Shown: one piece after another, positions 3,787 to 32,032 of the stretch
Numbering within the stretch: position 1 is the first letter of the stretch
Layout of the letters: every line of letters begins with the position of its first letter
DNA from: a bacterium
Lineage (GTDB): Bacteria > UBA8248
Reading direction: 5' to 3'
NCBI GenBank assembly: GCA_965213685.1
Contig: CBDBZY010000013.1
Span: 32,001-96,000 of the forward strand
Length of the DNA stretch: 64,000 nt
Notes under the pieces: model-generated
Told to the model about the DNA's origin: nothing
The model's database searches: none
Seen by the model: only the letters and a program-made list of their open reading frames with translations
Program-made: the position numbers and the translations under genes

Positions 3787-5565
3787 ATGATCCGTTTGGC
3801 AATGGCGATTCTGGCGCTTGCGGGCGCGATTCTCTCCGGTGCGATCGGAGGGCGGGCCGTTCAGGCTGCGCCGCTTCGGGCGGAGCGGCCGAACGTCGTC
3901 CTGATTCTCGTGGACGACCTGGGCTATAACGACGTCGGCTTTCAGGGCGCCACCGACATCCGGACGCCGAACATCGACCGCATCGCCAGGGAGGGCGTCG
4001 TATTCACCAACGGCTATGTGGCGTCAGCGGTTTGTGCCGCCTCGCGCGCCGGCCTGCTGACGGGGCGCTATCCCGCGCGCTTCGGGATGGATGGCAACAT
4101 CCCCTACGCGCCTTTTGATTCGCATATCGGTCTGCCGGTGCGTCAGACGACGTTCGCCCGGCGCCTGCAGGCCGCCGGCTACCGCACTGGACTGGTGGGC
4201 AAATGGCATCTGGGAGCCGCGCCTCGCTTTCTCCCGCGCAATCGCGGGTTCGACTATTTCTTCGGCTTCGTGGGCGGCGGGCACACCTATTGGGGCCGAG
4301 ATGTTGACGCCGCCAATTTGACCAACTGGGCGAGAACCCCGATCATCGACAATGCCGCCGCGGCCGTCCTGCAAGACGATGACTACCTGACCGACGTTCT
4401 GACCGACCGGGCGATCGGTTTCATCCAGGCAAAATCGAAGGCGCCGTTTTTTCTCTACCTCTCCTATAACGCGCCCCACACCCCGCTCCAAGCGCCGCAC
4501 AAGCTGATTCGGAAATATGCCCACATCCCGCGAGACAAGCGGCGCCGATACCTGGCGATGGTGGATTCGCTGGACGCGAACGTGGGGCGGTTGCTGGACG
4601 CGCTGGAGAAATCGGGCCGGCGGGACAACACCGTCCTTTTCTTTCTGAGCGACAATGGCGGCTTCAGGGACTTCGGCCGCAAGAATCCAGGCTGGGCGGA
4701 CAACAGGCCGCTGCGGGGGGGCAAGACCGCGCATTACGAGGGCGGGATTCGGGTGCCTTTCGTCGCCTCCTGGCCCAGGGCGTGGCCGCAGGGGGAGACG
4801 TATGAGCCGATGGTCATCAGCCTGGACATCGCTTCCACCGTGATGGCACTCGCCGGCCGCCCGATCCGCTTGGACGGGGTCAATCTTGATCCTTACTTGC
4901 GCGGCGCGGCCGCCGGTCCTCCCCACAAGGCCTTGTTTTGGCGACACGGAGTCCGCTACGCCGTCCGCGCCGGCGACCTGAAGCTCATCCGGGGAAAGAC
5001 TGTCGGGCCAACGGAGCTTTTCAACCTGCGGGAGGACGTTGGCGAGACGCGAGACCTGATGGGCGCGGACCCCGAGGCCGGACGTCGGCTCGTCCGTCTT
5101 TGGAACGAGTGGAATCAAAAGAACGCCCCCGACCCCATATTCCTGGGAACGTGGCATTACTCGGTAAGACGGCACAGGTTTATGGTGGAATCCCATCGCT
5201 TTGCGACTTACGGGAAGGGAGCACAGCCTCTGAAGTGGCGTCTCCGGGGAGTCGAGGCGCCCCCCTCTCCCCCTCTCCTCCGCCCCCCTCCCCCCCCGTT
5301 AAATCTCAAAGGTTCCGGGTATGTCGGAGGGATACTTCTCGAGTGGGACCACAGTGCGGACGCTGCGGGCTATGAGTTCCGGCTAAAGAGCTCGAGAGAA
5401 ACCGCGTGGCGGCCGTGGAAGCACGCTCGGGTAGTAAAGGCGTGGCGATCGGAATGCCCCCTGCCCGGCCTGACCCGCAACCTGCTTTACTATGTGCAGT
5501 TGCGCGCCAAGAACGCCGCTGGCAAGGGCAGGCCGAGTCCGGTTTTGGTGGTGAAGACGAAATAG
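3787..5565 (+). CDS. Secreted formylglycine-type sulfatase with C-terminal fibronectin type III-like domain
   Basis: Signal peptide; PNVVLILVDDLG, CAASRAGLLTGR, GKWHLG, SDNG motifs; Pro-rich linker, then P..L..LEW..Y..GL...Y.VQLRA.N.AG.G.PS (FN3 pattern). Confidence 0.9.
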   Translation: MIRLAMAILALAGAILSGAIGGRAVQAAPLRAERPNVVLILVDDLGYNDVGFQGATDIRTPNIDRIAREGVVFTNGYVASAVCAASRAGLLTGRYPARFGMDGNIPYAPFDSHIGLPVRQTTFARRLQAAGYRTGLVGKWHLGAAPRFLPRNRGFDYFFGFVGGGHTYWGRDVDAANLTNWARTPIIDNAAAAVLQDDDYLTDVLTDRAIGFIQAKSKAPFFLYLSYNAPHTPLQAPHKLIRKYAHIPRDKRRRYLAMVDSLDANVGRLLDALEKSGRRDNTVLFFLSDNGGFRDFGRKNPGWADNRPLRGGKTAHYEGGIRVPFVASWPRAWPQGETYEPMVISLDIASTVMALAGRPIRLDGVNLDPYLRGAAAGPPHKALFWRHGVRYAVRAGDLKLIRGKTVGPTELFNLREDVGETRDLMGADPEAGRRLVRLWNEWNQKNAPDPIFLGTWHYSVRRHRFMVESHRFATYGKGAQPLKWRLRGVEAPPSPPLLRPPPPPLNLKGSGYVGGILLEWDHSADAAGYEFRLKSSRETAWRPWKHARVVKAWRSECPLPGLTRNLLYYVQLRAKNAAGKGRPSPVLVVKTK

Positions 5566-7452: not shown

Positions 7453-8016
7453 ATGGCGGACGGGCGGCGGCAGGGCGCATTGTTTCATCCGGCGGCTGCG
7501 GTTGCGGCCGCGCGCTGGCTGGAGCGGGTGCGCGCGGAATTTTCTGTCTTTGTGTCGGATGCGGGAATTGCGGAAATCCGGATGCTGGACGGCGTGGAAA
7601 AGCCCCGCGCGGCGCGCCATGCGAACGCGCAATCCACGCCGTTGCGTCGGCGGGCGGCGGAGCAGATACGGGAATACCTGCGCGGTGACCGGAGGAGGTT
7701 TCAGCTGCGGGCGGATCTCTCCTCCCTGTCCCCCTTCATGGAGGCGGTGCTCGGGCAGACGAGAAAGATTCCCTACGGCGAGACGCGCTCCTATGGCTGG
7801 GTGGCGCGGGAGATCGGCAGTCCCGGGGCGTCGCGGGCCGTCGGCCAGGCGTTGCACAGAAACCCCGTTCCGCTCCTCATACCCTGACATCGCGTTATCG
7901 CGGGCTCGGGCGAGCTCGGCGGATTCGCCAGCGGCCTGCCGCTGAAGGCGGCGCTCCTGGCCCATGAGGGGCATGTCGAAATCGCGGGAGGAAGCCATGT
8001 CGAGACCGATGCGTGA
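7453..8016 (+). CDS. ogt: Methylated-DNA--protein-cysteine methyltransferase (Ogt/MGMT), selenocysteine form; TGA 7885-7887 at the active site
   Basis: IPYGETRSYG..ASRAVGQAL..NPVPLLIP-TGA-HRVIAGSGELGGFASGLPLKAALLAHEG. The canonical PCHRV motif has TGA at Cys, and the conserved C-terminus continues in frame to TGA 8014-8016. Confidence 0.88.
7897..7924 (+). promoter_or_regulatory. Putative bacterial SECIS hairpin
   Basis: ATCGC-GGGCTC-GGGC-GAGCTC-GGCGGAT. Upper stem with a G-initiated 4-nt loop 20 nt after the TGA. Confidence 0.6.
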
Positions 8017-8573
8017 TTTTATTGATCGCGTGCGCGAAATCGTCCGGGCGGGCGGGAGCGAGGAGGAGTTGACCGCCCGGGTGGCGGCGCGTCTCGCTCC
8101 GATTCTGGATGCGCCCGACCTGTTGAGCACAGAGCAGCTGCTGGTGAAAAAAGAGGGCTTTACGCTCAACCGAATCCACGTCGAGCCGGATGAGAGCTTC
8201 TCCATCGGCGCCGGCATATGGGACGTGGGACAGACCACCCCGATCCACGATCACGGCACCTGGGGGGTGATAGGCATTTACCGCGGCATGGAGAACGAGG
8301 AGAGTTTCTTGCGCGAGGGGCCCCCGCGAGGATGGCGTCCGCGTCAGGCTCACCCCCCGGGGCAGGCGCCTAGCGGTGCCTGGCGACGTGTTTGTCTGCT
8401 GCACGCAGGACGACGACGTGCACCGCGTCAGCTGCGCCTCGTCCGAGCCTGTGGTGGGCGTCCACGTCTATGGCGGGAACCTCGCCAAAATCCCGCGCTT
8501 CCAGTATGAGGAATCCACCGGCGCCGTGCGCTCGTTTCAAACCGGATGGGACTACGCGAGAATCTCCGTCTGA
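7997..8573 (+). CDS. Thiol dioxygenase (cysteine/3-mercaptopropionate dioxygenase-like cupin); +1 frameshift at about 8317-8325
   Basis: W..GQTTPIHDHGTWGVIG in one frame and PGDV..DDVHRV..GVHVYGGNL in the +1 frame. Removing one base from GGGGCCCCC restores a continuous protein. Confidence 0.8.
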
Positions 8574-8791
8574 TTTCCCCGAACCGATGGGCGCCCCGCC
8601 GCGTAGCGGGGCTCCCCGTTCGTCGAAATGAGGGGACGACGCGGTGGCTTGTTCGGGGGAGTCGTTTTGGGTATGATCGGGATCAAAGTTTGATGTGCGA
8701 AGAGGTTGGTTTCTGAGGACTTCATGCGCCGCCCCCCTCCGAAGGAGTCCCCATGTTTGGAAAATTTGAAGGGGAGGCGGAATCTCCCTCA

Positions 8792-8820
8792 TTGCCCCGT
8801 TCGCCCCAGAATGCTAGGTT
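8792..8820 (+). promoter_or_regulatory. Putative sigma70 promoter (extended -10)
   Basis: TTGCCC-17 nt-TAGGTT with TG at 8812-8813, immediately before the octamer repeat. Confidence 0.4.
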
Positions 8821-8827
8821 GAGCCAG

Positions 8828-8919
8828 GACACCCCGACACCCCGACACCCCGACACCCCGACACCCCGACACCCCGACACCCCGACACCCCGACACCCCG
8901 ACACCCCGACACCCCGACA
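8828..8919 (+). repeat. Simple sequence repeat (GACACCCC) x11.5
   Basis: 11 perfect 8-bp units at 8828-8915 plus a partial GACA. Confidence 0.98.
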
Positions 8920-9003
8920 AGAAACCATAGACGGCTAAACGCCGGATTCGGCAACGACCGTCGCGCCGCTTCCCGCATCATCCTCGGCGATGTTCTCCGT
9001 GTT

Positions 9004-9837
9004 TTGCCACGCCTCCCACCGGATGAAAGGTATGAGGTCGTCATTGCCGATCCGCCTTACAACATAGGCAAGGATTTCGGAAACAACGGCGATGACTTGC
9101 CCATTGACCATTATGTGAAATGGTCGAAAGCGTGGCTGAATCAATGCCTGGAGCGACTCACCGAAAACGGCGTTTTATACGTCTACGGCTTCCCGGAGGT
9201 TCTGTGCCGCGTTGCGGCGCAATATCCCGTTGACGGGCAGCGCTGGCTGGCGTGGCACTATACGAACAAGACTGTCCCCTCCTCCATGTTCTGGCAGCGC
9301 GCCCATGAATCCATTTTGTGCATGTGGAGACCGGAAACCCGGCGGCCGGAACTGGAAATCGATCAGATAAGAGAACCCTACACAAAGTCCTACCTGGCGT
9401 GTGCGGGAAGGAGAAGAGCCGGGACTCCCTCCCGGTTCGGCGCGAACAAAACGACGACGTATGCCGCCCATCCCAATGGCGCGCTGCCGAGGGACGTCAT
9501 CAAGATTCCCGCACTGGCCGGCGGGGCAGGCGCATCCGAGCGATGGTTCATGTGCCATGATTGCGGCGGCGAAGTATTCCCGCCCGGCGAAATCAAGAAC
9601 CATCACGGACACGACATATTCAAGCACCCTACCCAGAAGCCGATGGAGCTGACGCGCCGCCTGCTCTTGTCGCGCATCACCGGCGCATCCGGTCGCCTAC
9701 TCGTTCCCTTTGCAGGTTCCGGTTCGGAATGCGTCGTCGCCCAGCAAATGGGCGTTTCTTTTACCGGAATTGACATGAACCCGCAGTTTGTCCGCTTCGC
9801 GCGCAGATGGCTCCAAAAGGAGCGGGACGGTGTATAG
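9004..9837 (+). CDS. Beta-class N4-C/N6-A DNA methyltransferase (true start lies upstream of 9004)
   Basis: Motif IV DPPY precedes HPTQKP and motif I PFAGSGS. The in-frame upstream sequence RIILGDVLRVL matches the usual beta-MTase N-terminus but has no in-frame start codon. Confidence 0.9.
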   Translation: MPRLPPDERYEVVIADPPYNIGKDFGNNGDDLPIDHYVKWSKAWLNQCLERLTENGVLYVYGFPEVLCRVAAQYPVDGQRWLAWHYTNKTVPSSMFWQRAHESILCMWRPETRRPELEIDQIREPYTKSYLACAGRRRAGTPSRFGANKTTTYAAHPNGALPRDVIKIPALAGGAGASERWFMCHDCGGEVFPPGEIKNHHGHDIFKHPTQKPMELTRRLLLSRITGASGRLLVPFAGSGSECVVAQQMGVSFTGIDMNPQFVRFARRWLQKERDGV

Positions 9838-10420
9838 GATGACTCCGCTGATGCTGCAGAATCTGGGCCGCGAACTTCGCAAGTTCCACGACCAGTTCAT
9901 CGGCGGCAGATGCGCGGGTTGGCAAATGGAGGAACTCCTCGTGCGGGCGATCCAGTCCGACACCAGTCGCAATCATCATGTCGAATGGCGAGAACACGGG
10001 CACGACGACAAGGCGGATATCCGCGTGCGAGCCAACGGGCGTGAATACCCCATCGAGGTGAAATCGGGGCAGGTGAAAAAGAAAACCGGAAAGCTGACTC
10101 TCTCGGGTCATCGATTGGGCCGCTTCCAGGGAGATTTCGGGAAGATCACGGATTATCTGAACGGCAAAATGGCTCATGTCATCTCGCTAGCCCATGAGAA
10201 GCACGAAGACGAACAAGGCCGCCACCATATCTACCGTTTGTATTATATCGAGCCGACGCGCCTTCGGGGGCTTGCGGAGAAAAATTGGGACAAAGTGGGA
10301 GCGCAATTCAAACAGACGAACAGCGATGGCGTGGAGTTCTCGTTGCGGCCTTCCATGAGTTGGCAGATATGGTGGACGATTCCTGTGGGGCAACCGGAGA
10401 AGATTTTCGATTTTGCGTAG
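9830..10420 (+). CDS. Putative Type II restriction endonuclease (PD-(D/E)xK-like)
   Basis: GTG 9830 with RBS AAGGAG overlaps the MTase stop; E...ADI....IEVKSG nuclease-like motif; the region is visibly less GC-rich. Confidence 0.65.
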   Translation: MYRMTPLMLQNLGRELRKFHDQFIGGRCAGWQMEELLVRAIQSDTSRNHHVEWREHGHDDKADIRVRANGREYPIEVKSGQVKKKTGKLTLSGHRLGRFQGDFGKITDYLNGKMAHVISLAHEKHEDEQGRHHIYRLYYIEPTRLRGLAEKNWDKVGAQFKQTNSDGVEFSLRPSMSWQIWWTIPVGQPEKIFDFA

Positions 10421-10438
10421 CGATAAGGTGCGCGTCGC

Positions 10439-11143
10439 CTACCACGGCATGGGTTTTCTGTCCTGGAAATAGCCGCCCGTAGGCCCGTTGCCTGGCAGCA
10501 GGGCGAGCCACACCGGCGTGTCCGCCCCCTCGTCTATTGATTTGGACGCCCCGCGCCCGCCCATGTCGGTTCGCACCCACCCCGGATGGCAGCAGTTGAC
10601 GAGCACGCCGGTTCCCCGGAACTCCGCCGCGAGGATTTTCGTCATCGCGTTCAGCGCGGTTTTCGTGATCCGGTATGCGGGCGAGCCGCCTCCCATGCTG
10701 GCGAGAGCGCCCATGCCGCTGGAGACGTTCACGATTCTGCCGGCGGGGCTTTTTTTCAGAAGGCCGGCCAAGGCCTGGCACGTCATGAGGGGGCCGTAGA
10801 GGTTGGTTTCCATCATTTCGCGGAGGATGTCGACCGGAACGTCCAGCCCCGTCATTCCCTTGTCCGCCCGGATGGCCGCGTTGTTGACGAGGATGTCCAG
10901 GCGGCCGAACTCTTCCGCCACGAACGCGGCCAGCCCGGCGACGCTGCGCGGATCGGCGACGTCCAGGGCGCGGAAGACGACCCCCAGCCCCTCGGTTTCG
11001 AGCTGTTCCCTGGCGGTCTCGCCCCTCGATGCGTCCCGCGCCGTCAGGATGGTCCTGACGCCCCGCCTGGCGAGTGCGCGGCATATTCCAAAGCCAATCC
11101 CCTTGTTGCCGCCGGTGACGACGGCGATCTTTTCATTCGGCAA
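10439..11143 (-). CDS. SDR family oxidoreductase (carbonyl reductase-like)
   Basis: VVTGGNKGIG, LVNNAA, NVSSG, YRITK, CHPGWVRTDMGG; TTG start after GAGGAG. Confidence 0.93.
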   Translation of the reverse strand: MPNEKIAVVTGGNKGIGFGICRALARRGVRTILTARDASRGETAREQLETEGLGVVFRALDVADPRSVAGLAAFVAEEFGRLDILVNNAAIRADKGMTGLDVPVDILREMMETNLYGPLMTCQALAGLLKKSPAGRIVNVSSGMGALASMGGGSPAYRITKTALNAMTKILAAEFRGTGVLVNCCHPGWVRTDMGGRGASKSIDEGADTPVWLALLPGNGPTGGYFQDRKPMPW

Positions 11144-19069: not shown

Positions 19070-19660
19070 GCGTTTGATGGCGTGGATGACGTCTGCTCCG
19101 GTGCTCCGGGGCGCCGGAGGGTTCGCCTCGCGCCGTCCGGAGCAAATCCGGCGTTGCCCCCATGTCCATGCCCGCCCTCATCCTTGGTGTCGGGGCGATT
19201 CCCCCACGGGCCTGGGCGCGGGCGCGCCGGCTACGCCGTGATGCGCGTCATTCTCTGGAGGTGGCATGCGCGGATGCGCCGGAGGTGGCATCATCTGATT
19301 CCGCATGCACGGGTGCTGCGGCGCATCCGGGAGCTGTGCCGGCCCGCGCCCGGAGGGACGTGTTTTTCGGGCGGTGCGCCAGCCTGGCGCCGGCGTGGAT
19401 GCGCACTCGCGGCCCGGCGTCCGGGGAGTCGCATCCACAACATGGGAGCCTGGGGAGGGATGCCCGAACTCGCGCTTCAGGAGGGCGGTGCGCACGATGG
19501 CGGGTCAAAACGCGGGCGCGGGAAACTCGGAGCGGGGAGCGGTCGTCCGTCCGCGCCCGTTGCGCGCACTCCCGGGATTCGGGGCCATGAGGCGTGCGGC
19601 GGCGGCGGGTCGGCCCATCAGCAGCGCGGCGCGGTGCGCGATCTGCTGTCGGCGGAGGCC
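19070..19660 (+). pseudogene. Decayed MATE transporter paralogue
   Basis: Frame-shifting fragments collinear with the neighbouring MATE: MPALILGVGAIP~IPLLIFGLGSFP; HLIPHARVLRRIREL~HLKPHAATMRRIILL; AVRTMAGQNAGAG~AVRTMVGQNVGAN. Confidence 0.7.
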
Positions 19661-20769
19661 GTCCGCCTGATTCCGCATGCGCGGGTGCTGCGGCGCATCC
19701 GGGAGCTGTGCCGGCCCGCGCCCGGAGGGACGTGTTTTTCGGGCGGTGCGCCAGCCTGGCGCCGGCGTGGATGCGCACTCGCGGCCCGGCGTCCGGGGAG
19801 TCGCATCCACAACATGGGAGCCTGGGGAGGGATGCCCGAACTCGCGCTTCAGGAGGGCGGTGCGCACGATGGCGGGTCAAAACGCGGGCGCGGGAAACTC
19901 GGAGCAGGGGGCGGTCGTCCACCTGCGCCTGTTGCGCGCACTCCCGGGGTGCGGGGCCATGAGGCGCGCGGCGGCGGCGGGTCGGCCCATCGGCAGCGCG
20001 GCGCGGTGCGCGATCTGCTGTCGGCGGAGGCCGTCCGCCTGATTCCGCATGCGCGGGTGCTGCGGCGCATCCGGGAGCTGTGCCGGCCCGCGCCCGGAGG
20101 GACGTGTTTTTCGGGCGGTGCGCCAGCCTGGCGCCGGGGCGCATGCGCACTCGCGGCCCGGCGTCCGGGGAGTCGCATCCACAACATGGGAGCCTGGGGA
20201 GGGATGCCCGAACTCGCGCTTCAGGAGGGCGGTGCGCACGATGGCGGGTCAAAACGCGGGCGCGGGAAACTCGGAGCAGGGGGCGGTCGTCCACCTGCGC
20301 CTGTTGCGCGCACTCCCGGGGTGCGGGGCCATGAGGCGCGCGGCGGCGGCGGGTCGGCCCATCGGCGGCGCGGCGCGGTGCGCGATCGGCTGTCGGCGGA
20401 GGCCGGCGCATCCGGAGTCCAGCGGGAGGCCGTCCGCCTGATTCCGCATGCGCGGGTGCTGCGGCGCATCCGGGAGCTGTGCCGGCCCGCGCCCGGAGAG
20501 ACATGTTTTTCGGGCGGTGCGCCAGCCTGGCGCCGGGGCGCATGCGCACTCGCGGCCCGGGGAGCCGCGTCCACAACATGGGAGCATGGGGAGGATGCTC
20601 GGACTCACGCTTCAGGGGGGCGGTGCGCACGATGGCGGGTCAAAACGCGGGCGCGAGAAACTCGGAGCGGGGAGCGGTCGTCCGTCCGCGCCCGTTGCGC
20701 GCACTCCCGGGATTCGGGGCCATGAGGCCCGGCGCGGTGCGCGATCGGCTGTCGGCGGAGGCCGTCCGC
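19295..20769 (+). repeat. Long tandem repeat, about 372-bp unit x4
   Basis: Units start CTGATTCCGCATG at 19295, 19667, 20039 and 20438 (lengths 372, 372, 399, 332). Confidence 0.97.
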
Positions 20770-31682: not shown

Positions 31683-32032
31683 GCGGGCGCACGACGCCCC
31701 GTCCCGAGGGAGGGAGGCCCAACCCGGAGGCGTGCGACGGCTCCCTCGTCTGGTGGGTGGGCGTGCCGACGTCGGAGCAGAACTATTTGCAGGCGGTGCT
31801 GGAAGGCTATGATGATTTAGGATACTACCAGACGTTCCGCTCCGGTGCCGGGAAAAACGAGGGGGAGCAGCCCATCTCGCTTGCGCGGCTGACCTCCTCC
31901 GTCGATGCGCGGGCGGAAGCGGAAGCGCTTCTCGATGCGCTCTCTGAAGAAGTGAATCTCCACATCCTGGACGTCACCCCTCCGTTCGGCTCTGCGGAAC
32001 AGCCCCGATCCATAGCGGACGCCTCCGGCTAG
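31679..32032 (+). CDS. Hypothetical protein (DUF4911-like)
   Basis: VPTSEQNYLQAVLEGYDDLG; TTG overlaps the previous stop. Confidence 0.5.
   Translation: MSGRTTPRPEGGRPNPEACDGSLVWWVGVPTSEQNYLQAVLEGYDDLGYYQTFRSGAGKNEGEQPISLARLTSSVDARAEAEALLDALSEEVNLHILDVTPPFGSAEQPRSIADASG

Follow-up and report, generated by a model that had tools for sequence, protein, structure and literature searches.

The window analysed here is a stretch of 64,000 nucleotides (nt) from a bacterium (GTDB lineage Bacteria; UBA8248), running from position 32,001 to position 96,000 of the forward strand of contig CBDBZY010000013.1 in NCBI GenBank assembly GCA_965213685.1, and positions below refer to this window unless a contig label is given. 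Positions 8741 to 10420 of the window carry what is probably a two-gene Type II restriction-modification (R-M) operon under a translational ON/OFF switch, in which an octanucleotide simple sequence repeat (SSR) gates expression and the 11 repeat units of the assembly correspond to the OFF state. An earlier reading made from the letters alone (the sequence-only reading) had proposed such an octamer switch on a Type II-like pair that is presently OFF, and this proposal is supported by the anatomy of the locus, the comparison with homologues and the genome context. Studies of random methylase switching have concentrated on a few host-adapted pathogens, and almost only on Type III and Type I systems. 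The present locus would extend the principle to a plain methylase and nuclease pair, with an 8-base unit, in a bacterium of high G+C content from a small phylum, and raises the question of how a cell survives the switching off of a Type II methylase.

A search of the window with Tandem Repeats Finder (TRF) revealed a perfect period-8 array at 8828-8919 on the plus strand (11.5 copies, 100% matches, score 184), consisting of 11 full GACACCCC units at 8828-8915 followed by GACA, and ranking as the second-longest perfect short repeat across the 3.07 Mb of high-GC contigs of the assembly. Because the GACACCCC unit contains no T, the array is free of stop codons in all three plus-strand frames, each of which encodes the proline-rich octapeptide DTPTPRHP. 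Upstream of the array, a Shine-Dalgarno-like GAAGGAG (8741-8747, plus strand) lies 5 nt ahead of ATG 8753, the first start codon after the in-frame stop. Translation and TRF agree with the sequence-only reading that the frame starting at this ATG enters the 11-fold repeat and stops at TAA 8936-8938: the leader frame in its present register (8753-8938, plus strand) comprises the ATG, 25 unique codons, (DTPTPRHP)n and the TAA, yielding a peptide of 61 amino acids (aa) that crosses the array. The methylase frame, on the other hand, is open from 8818 (directly after TAG 8815-8817) to TAG 9835-9837, reads ...SRIILGDVLRVLPRLPPDERYEVVIADPPYN... and contains ...SRIILGDVLRVLPRL...VVIADPPYN. It thus includes the N-terminal GD strand that had been noticed before, and its earliest ATG, GTG or TTG is TTG 9004.

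The effect of unit number on these frames was examined by swapping the array in silico for 5 to 17 units and checking the resulting open reading frames (ORFs) for the DPPY motif of the methylase. Only 7, 10, 13 and 16 units yielded an ORF with DPPY (350, 358, 366 and 374 aa, respectively), every other unit number in this range leading to an ORF of 45-77 aa that ended at TAG 8928 or TAA 8936. The earlier claim that losing one unit or gaining two restores the frame therefore holds, with both 10 and 13 units giving an intact ORF. The OFF-frame stops are found just 3′ of the array, at 8928-8938 on the plus strand (TAG 8928-8930 and TAA 8936-8938), and both OFF frames consequently terminate less than 20 nt past it, with 11 and 12 units each yielding 61 aa. 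A repeat with a unit of 8 nt, which is not a multiple of three, thus separates ATG 8753 from the core of the methylase, and gain or loss of units shifts an otherwise intact methylase gene in or out of frame. Moreover, the 11 perfect units exceed the minimum of at least three units applied to longer repeats by Atack et al. (2018; PMC5909438).

The frame at 8818-9837 (plus strand, without a start before TTG 9004) belongs to a beta-class N6/N4 DNA methyltransferase (PF01555, E=1.6e-24), with its DPPY motif at 9049-9060 and FAGSGSE, matching the FxGxG motif that binds S-adenosylmethionine, at 9709-9729 (both on the plus strand and in the methylase frame). It is a stand-alone methylase with the (D/N/S)PP(Y/F) and FxGxG motifs of Type II methylases, its variable region holds a Cys2-His2 cluster (C206, C209, H222 and H230), and its PDB sequence matches are M.RsrI, M.MboIIA and CcrM (1eg2, 1g60 and 6pbd; E 6e-15 to 3e-9). 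Database searching returned 6219 homologues, the best 120 of which (59-67% identity, 288-509 aa) served to compare start sites; 40 of these 120 were aligned with the present methylase, which retained all 79 invariant columns of the resulting 41-sequence alignment. An I..GD strand precedes DPPY in 120/120 homologues, and the distance from annotated start to DPPY ranges from 23 to 103 residues (23 in 2/120, at least 28 in 118/120). For the 10-unit ON protein this offset would be 96, within the range of the homologues. A start at TTG 9004, which the sequence-only reading had listed as an alternative, would reduce the offset to 15 and remove both G17 (invariant in the 41-sequence alignment) and D18 (nearly invariant). 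All 120 homologues start earlier than this, and no purine-rich ribosome site is present just upstream of TTG 9004, which was rejected as a start. Because TTG 9004 forfeits the conserved N-terminus and the methylase has no start further upstream in its own frame, translation must begin upstream of the array.

The same comparison bears on the suggestion that the repeat sits in a 5′ leader behind a promoter at 8792-8820. This finds little support, there being no methylase-frame start 3′ of the array that keeps the conserved N-terminus, and no sigma-70-like promoter was found in 8300-10700, the proposed 8792-8820 included, in a scan limited to the sigma-70 type. Likewise, 8400-10600 contained no Rfam element and the GACACCCC unit no classical slippery heptamer.

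Downstream of the methylase, and overlapping its end, lies a separate gene of 196 aa (9830-10420, plus strand) that probably encodes a Type II restriction endonuclease, as predicted from its sequence family and structure model. Its start is most likely GTG 9830, judging from an AAAGGAG ribosome site 7 nt upstream (9816-9822, plus strand) and from the family consensus, which opens with MYRLTP. With this start the two genes overlap by 8 nt, in line with the overlap that had been noted earlier; a start at ATG 9839 would instead fall one base past the methylase stop. The nuclease family comprises 172 homologues of ~196 aa and corresponds to no Pfam family. These homologues share contigs with homologues of the methylase (two, for example, with adjacent locus tags), and the partner follows the methylase directly on the same strand at each of the 4 closest metagenome loci. 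Among 52 sequences of the family, E34, E35, D59, D63 and K78 are invariant, and the present protein keeps all invariant residues. With E34/E35, D63 and E76-V-K78 as candidate catalytic residues, D63...E76-V-K78 fits the PD-(D/E)XK motif; the consensus has Q at position 76, where the present protein has E, giving a family motif D..(E/Q)xK.

Searches with the nuclease sequence gave no match in Pfam, NCBIfam or the PDB. Its structure model (pLDDT 88, pTM 0.82, two confidence measures of the prediction) yielded weak Foldseek matches in the PDB (E 1.2e-3 or worse, TM-score at most 0.41), nearly all of them Type II restriction endonucleases (MvaI, SwaI, EcoRV, HinP1I, DpnI) or Hjc resolvases, and part of the Atlas neighbours of a nuclease homologue carry SmaI, ThaI and NgoBV families. 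A separate adjacent gene for a probable nuclease is what the two-gene Type II organisation entails, whereas a Type III (Mod/Res) assignment fails on a 196-aa partner that lacks the helicase family (PF04851) and on a methylase core of ~300 aa, as opposed to ~600 aa for Mod.

Further support came from the distribution of repeats over the assembly, which totals 7.97 Mb in 71 contigs and has a bacterial part of 49 contigs with G+C >60% (the 3.07 Mb mentioned above). The other 22/71 contigs (~4.9 Mb, G+C 0.33-0.54; C2, C4, C7, C16, C18, C41, C51, C64 and 14 more) are full of (CA)n/(GA)n microsatellites, the longest with 135 copies, and look eukaryotic rather than bacterial. On the bacterial contigs, we listed long repeats capable of causing frameshifts (homopolymers of at least 12 nt, dinucleotides of at least 7 copies, tetramers of at least 5, and units of 5, 7, 8, 10 or 11 nt of at least 4) as well as matches to methylase domains (PF01555, PF02384, PF13651, PF00145). 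Thirteen of the 68 repeats lay within 1 kb of a methylase-domain match, whereas random placement put 1.34 of them there on average and never more than 7 over 2000 trials. By class, these were 7 of the 8 entries that were neither homopolymers nor CG dinucleotides (6 of 7 loci), 6 of the 49 homopolymers and none of the 11 CG dinucleotides. Viewed from the other side, 12/22 methylase loci carry such a repeat, with 7 of the 12 keeping their frame, 4 being broken at the repeat and 1 unclear. Such a genome-wide association of repeats with methylases is typical of contingency loci, and lends independent support to the octamer switch. With 12/22 repeat-bearing methylase loci, the genome as a whole would offer a rich natural setting in which to test combinatorial defence and epigenetic bet-hedging.

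The loci in frame include a methylase with a 10-mer x10 (C40:3154-3253), another with a 7-mer x12 (C34:974-1061; downstream, the final portion of its methylase domain is in a different frame), a Type ISP enzyme with (GCAA)6, a 1900-aa methylase-ResIII protein with a 44-nt homopolymer, and three loci with poly-C/G tracts. The broken ones are the present locus, a methylase with an octamer x5 (C44:176494-176533), an EcoRI-type methylase with (GA)13 and a Type I hsdM-like gene with poly-G 14. Of the eleven repeat-bearing methylase loci other than the present one, the eight without a position above are at C38:21679-21704, C5:26594-26617, C36:99104-99147, C44:165926-165950, C31:54399-54418, C31:99221-99237, C63:20926-20939 and C48:32069-32081, and carry (GA)13, (GCAA)6 and homopolymers of 13-44 nt. 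The layout of start codon, short leader, long-unit repeat and methylase recurs at the C40 (10-mer x10), C34 (7-mer) and C44:166k (poly-C 25) loci, and the decamer and heptamer of two of these other methylase loci were absent from 41 genomes of the family. Elsewhere in the assembly, five poly-G/C tracts of 16-24 nt occur within 9 kb at C3:27000-39000, among large same-strand ORFs that lack a Pfam family and are possibly a family of phase-variable genes. In addition, homopolymer G/C tracts of at least 15 nt are present in 10/22 other genomes of the genus (G018, G017, G010 and 7 more), and such long tracts may be a habit of the genus where assemblies resolve them.

The octamer itself is less distinctive than its position. 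At least three GACACCCC units occur in 103 stretches among 185,579 species genomes, mostly those of GC-rich bacteria, and the 14 longest arrays listed stand in unrelated sequence contexts. Arrays of this octamer are common microsatellites in GC-rich genomes, and the motif alone carries no meaning; what exceeds chance is that the repeat sits after a start codon and ahead of a methylase that lacks one, and that such repeats are associated with methylase genes across the genome. Within a phylum sample of 51 species genomes, the octamer was found only in a genome of the same genus (G015:C1:3903290-3903329, minus strand, (GACACCCC)x5). This array begins 10 bases past a Shine-Dalgarno sequence and ATG in an unrelated setting of lower GC, where translation in the present frame ends immediately after the repeat, another frame being open for ~110 codons.

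Sequencing runs allowed a comparison between strains. A search of public data for the locus gave eight runs from 4 studies, none of them recorded as RNA, and the best four (X1-X4, all from one study) were compared as k=31 contigs, of which those of X1, X2 and X3 span 8890-10420 (X3 from 8860). The X1 and X2 contigs are identical to the window on both flanks of the array, and X3 represents a strain of ~98% identity, without any indel, in which the array is also present. The sequence-only reading had considered a G missing at 8928, which would hide an ATG at 8927; this candidate was rejected, as the contigs of the three runs cover the site without an indel. Relative to X3, 6/10 single-nucleotide polymorphisms (SNPs) in the methylase core and 3/7 changed codons in the nuclease are synonymous, and 8685-8827 (with ribosome site, start and leader) shows 1 SNP in 143 nt versus 8 SNPs in the adjacent upstream 95 nt (Fisher p=0.003). 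Although the samples are small, these figures suggest that both genes and the leader have been under constraint. In X1, X2 and X4, extra contigs at the array (8827-8861) carry the octamer with different flanks; as these contigs, which come from the same samples, are absent from the assembly, a second locus or organism carries the octamer.

In the switch that we propose, the methylase would be translated solely from ATG 8753, with the octamer repeat forming part of its N-terminal coding region, and slipped-strand mispairing would alter the number of units at a useful rate. At 3n+1 units (7, 10, 13, 16), ATG 8753 would be joined to the enzyme via a (DTPTPRHP)n linker (ON), while at other unit numbers, including the 11 of the assembly, translation would end at TAG 8928 or TAA 8936 (OFF). 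The OFF state would leave ~890 nt of mRNA untranslated ahead of the nuclease start, and nuclease output might then drop together with that of the methylase, through lost translational coupling at the 8-nt overlap and through polarity. Such a switch could act as a bet-hedging device for defence, for the uptake of DNA or for gene expression that depends on methylation.

A bolder version, in which the whole Type II operon is switched as a unit without suicide, nuclease synthesis being conditional on methylase translation, and in which a dozen repeat-gated R-M genes behave alike, seems unlikely to us, even if several routes to it can be imagined. Coupling might depend on the 8-nt overlap, on Rho-type polarity for which the repeat RNA, rich in C and poor in G, provides the seed, or on a hairpin melted by translating ribosomes. 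The latter would be a terminator-like hairpin followed by the T-run TTTCTTTT (9738-9763, plus strand; 6 bp, -10.7 kcal/mol) inside the methylase 3′ end, which could, speculatively, link nuclease transcription to methylase translation and might also contribute to a drop in nuclease output in the proposed OFF state. Hairpins of this kind are not above chance (2 sites versus 3.2 expected in shuffles), and this one is absent from 4 related AT-rich loci. A lottery of a dozen repeat-gated R-M genes with long units (7, 8 and 10 nt) could generate thousands of defence and methylome states per genotype, and would, if true, be the first of its kind described in this lineage.

The surroundings of the pair bear on its origin. 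Because its G+C (55-61%) is lower than that of its flanks (65-69%) and no close relative exists in 60 related genomes (no orthologue; best match 31% identity), the pair is an acquired island. The upstream gene (7964-8573) has no Pfam match and presumably encodes a cupin or cysteine-dioxygenase-like protein; it changes frame at a G4C5 run near 8317-8325, either through a real 1-nt frameshift or through an assembly error. The next ORF to the right, on the opposite strand, carries a TGGNKGIG motif and is taken by us to be a short-chain dehydrogenase. Elsewhere in the window, TRF reported an imperfect octamer array, (CCCCCTCT)x4.6 with 79% matches, at 5261-5296, and a tandem repeat with a period of 372 nt (3.8 copies, 93% matches) at 19295-20728.

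Several observations weigh against the switch. The contigs of all four runs end inside the array, so that its units could not be counted and length variation was unobserved, and the lack of an orthologue among the 60 relatives leaves no comparison of the tract between species. In X3, the last four units of the array carry a C>T change, and such interruptions would slow slippage in that strain. No comparable 5′ repeat was found at 80 metagenome loci carrying a methylase homologue (44-60% identity), where the only 5′ repeats were a (GGAA)5 ~370 nt upstream in locus L202 and an (AAGAA)3 in locus L166; because of this 0/80, the switch would be a lineage-specific addition rather than a family trait. 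The frameshift in the upstream gene points to either a single-base error or gene decay nearby. Finally, and as the main argument against a smoothly working switch, a separate Type II nuclease translated from a ribosome site of its own is dangerous once the methylase is OFF, and without some coupling of the two genes an OFF state should be costly.

Part of these observations would also be expected if a chance slip had simply inactivated the system, which would now be in the course of being lost, with the repeat not maintained as a reversible switch. The present out-of-frame methylase, the absence of the island from 60 relatives, the frameshifted upstream gene, the further breaks that the SSR-bearing methylase at C44:176k seems to have and the lack of observed tract-length variation are all compatible with ordinary decay, and an invariant tract length, if true, would make the locus merely a broken defence gene. 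However, both genes are intact apart from the register and retain all invariant residues, with synonymous changes predominating in the methylase relative to X3. A perfect 11-unit array is itself hypermutable, making the break reversible in principle, and the enrichment of non-triplet repeats at methylase genes (13/68 versus 1.3 expected) argues for selection for mutability. Decay therefore appears quite improbable.

The OFF assignment could also stem from a miscount in the assembly, the true array having 10 or 13 units and the methylase being expressed in most cells. Repeat arrays are easily miscounted and the run contigs cannot confirm the count. Depth does not settle it either: in X1 the repeat words reach 280-377 versus 16.6, which is more than 11.5 units explain, and the second octamer locus contributes to this excess. 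On the other hand, the assembly matches the X1 and X2 contigs letter for letter on both flanks, shows no indel relative to X3, and spans microsatellites of 270 nt as well as homopolymers as long as 44 nt, suggesting accurate long reads. We consider such a miscount very improbable, and even a wrong count would leave a slippery coding repeat in the gene, with the switch still standing. Synthesis of the methylase in the register of the assembly (from TTG 9004 or a non-canonical start, by ribosomal frameshifting, or with the repeat as 5′ leader or promoter spacer) is scarcely credible, since the existence of TTG 9004 with the DPPY core kept behind it, and promoter types of the lineage beyond the sigma-70 scan, are set against the late position of that start relative to all 120 homologues, the loss of invariant G17, the lack of a ribosome site before 9004 and of any in-frame start in 8818-9004, and the slippery-heptamer, Rfam and promoter searches, which all came back empty.

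A repeat-gated operon of this kind can be set beside several known systems. A 2026 review speaks of a 'limited representation' of switching in Type II systems (PMC13076061), and no octanucleotide-gated two-gene Type II operon appeared in the full-text literature searched, the supplements of surveys, which may list octamer or Type II cases, being outside that scope. Among structurally known enzymes, M.RsrI, M.MboIIA and CcrM share the catalytic core with the present methylase, as well as the order of its motifs from the N-terminal strand through DPPY and the variable region to FxGxG, but are distant relatives, the conserved Cys2-His2 insertion belonging to the family of the present methylase.

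A well-known parallel is the repeat-gated Type III mod gene; genes of this kind make up 17.4% of the mod genes listed in REBASE (Atack et al. 2018, PMC5909438). They likewise carry, in the 5′ part of the coding sequence for a PF01555-type N6-adenine methylase, a non-triplet repeat that sets whether the gene is in frame, and several occur per genome. The present methylase, however, has ~300-360 aa and is accompanied by a small stand-alone nuclease instead of a Res helicase, which makes the pair Type II. The Type III nuclease requires Mod, rendering the OFF state harmless, and this safety is not built into the present pair. The examples given there have shorter units (mono-, tetra- and pentanucleotide tracts), as opposed to the octamer found here. 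SSR-containing Type I hsdM and hsdS genes have also been surveyed, with octanucleotide units among the criteria (Atack et al. 2019, PMC7383803); these share the repeat-driven frame switching of R-M methylation, but the present locus has neither HsdS nor HsdR, and its methylase belongs to PF01555, not PF02384.

Within Type II, the (TA)n fusion methylase DCM8/DAM3 of Metamycoplasma hominis is postulated by its authors to be the first case of phase variants in a Type II methylase (PMC10305163). As in the present case, a Type II-class methylase has its full-length expression set by repeat number. The dinucleotide tract of DCM8/DAM3 is nevertheless located in the target-recognition region of a fusion protein, and has no overlapping nuclease gene; a length variation shown by Sanger sequencing also sets it apart from the present tract. 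Helicobacter pylori has many phase-variable methylases, including the Type IIG enzyme JHP1272 / HP1353-54 (Krebes et al. 2014, PMC3936762), and cj0031 of Campylobacter jejuni provides a further phase-variable example (Anjum et al. 2016, PMC4889913). These species resemble the present genome in having many slippery R-M genes, part of them in frame and part broken, with Type II-class enzymes included. Their homopolymer tracts, however, lie in single-chain Type IIG enzymes, in which nuclease and methylase switch together by construction, whereas at the present locus a long-unit repeat precedes the methylase in an operon of two genes, in an organism of 65% G+C.

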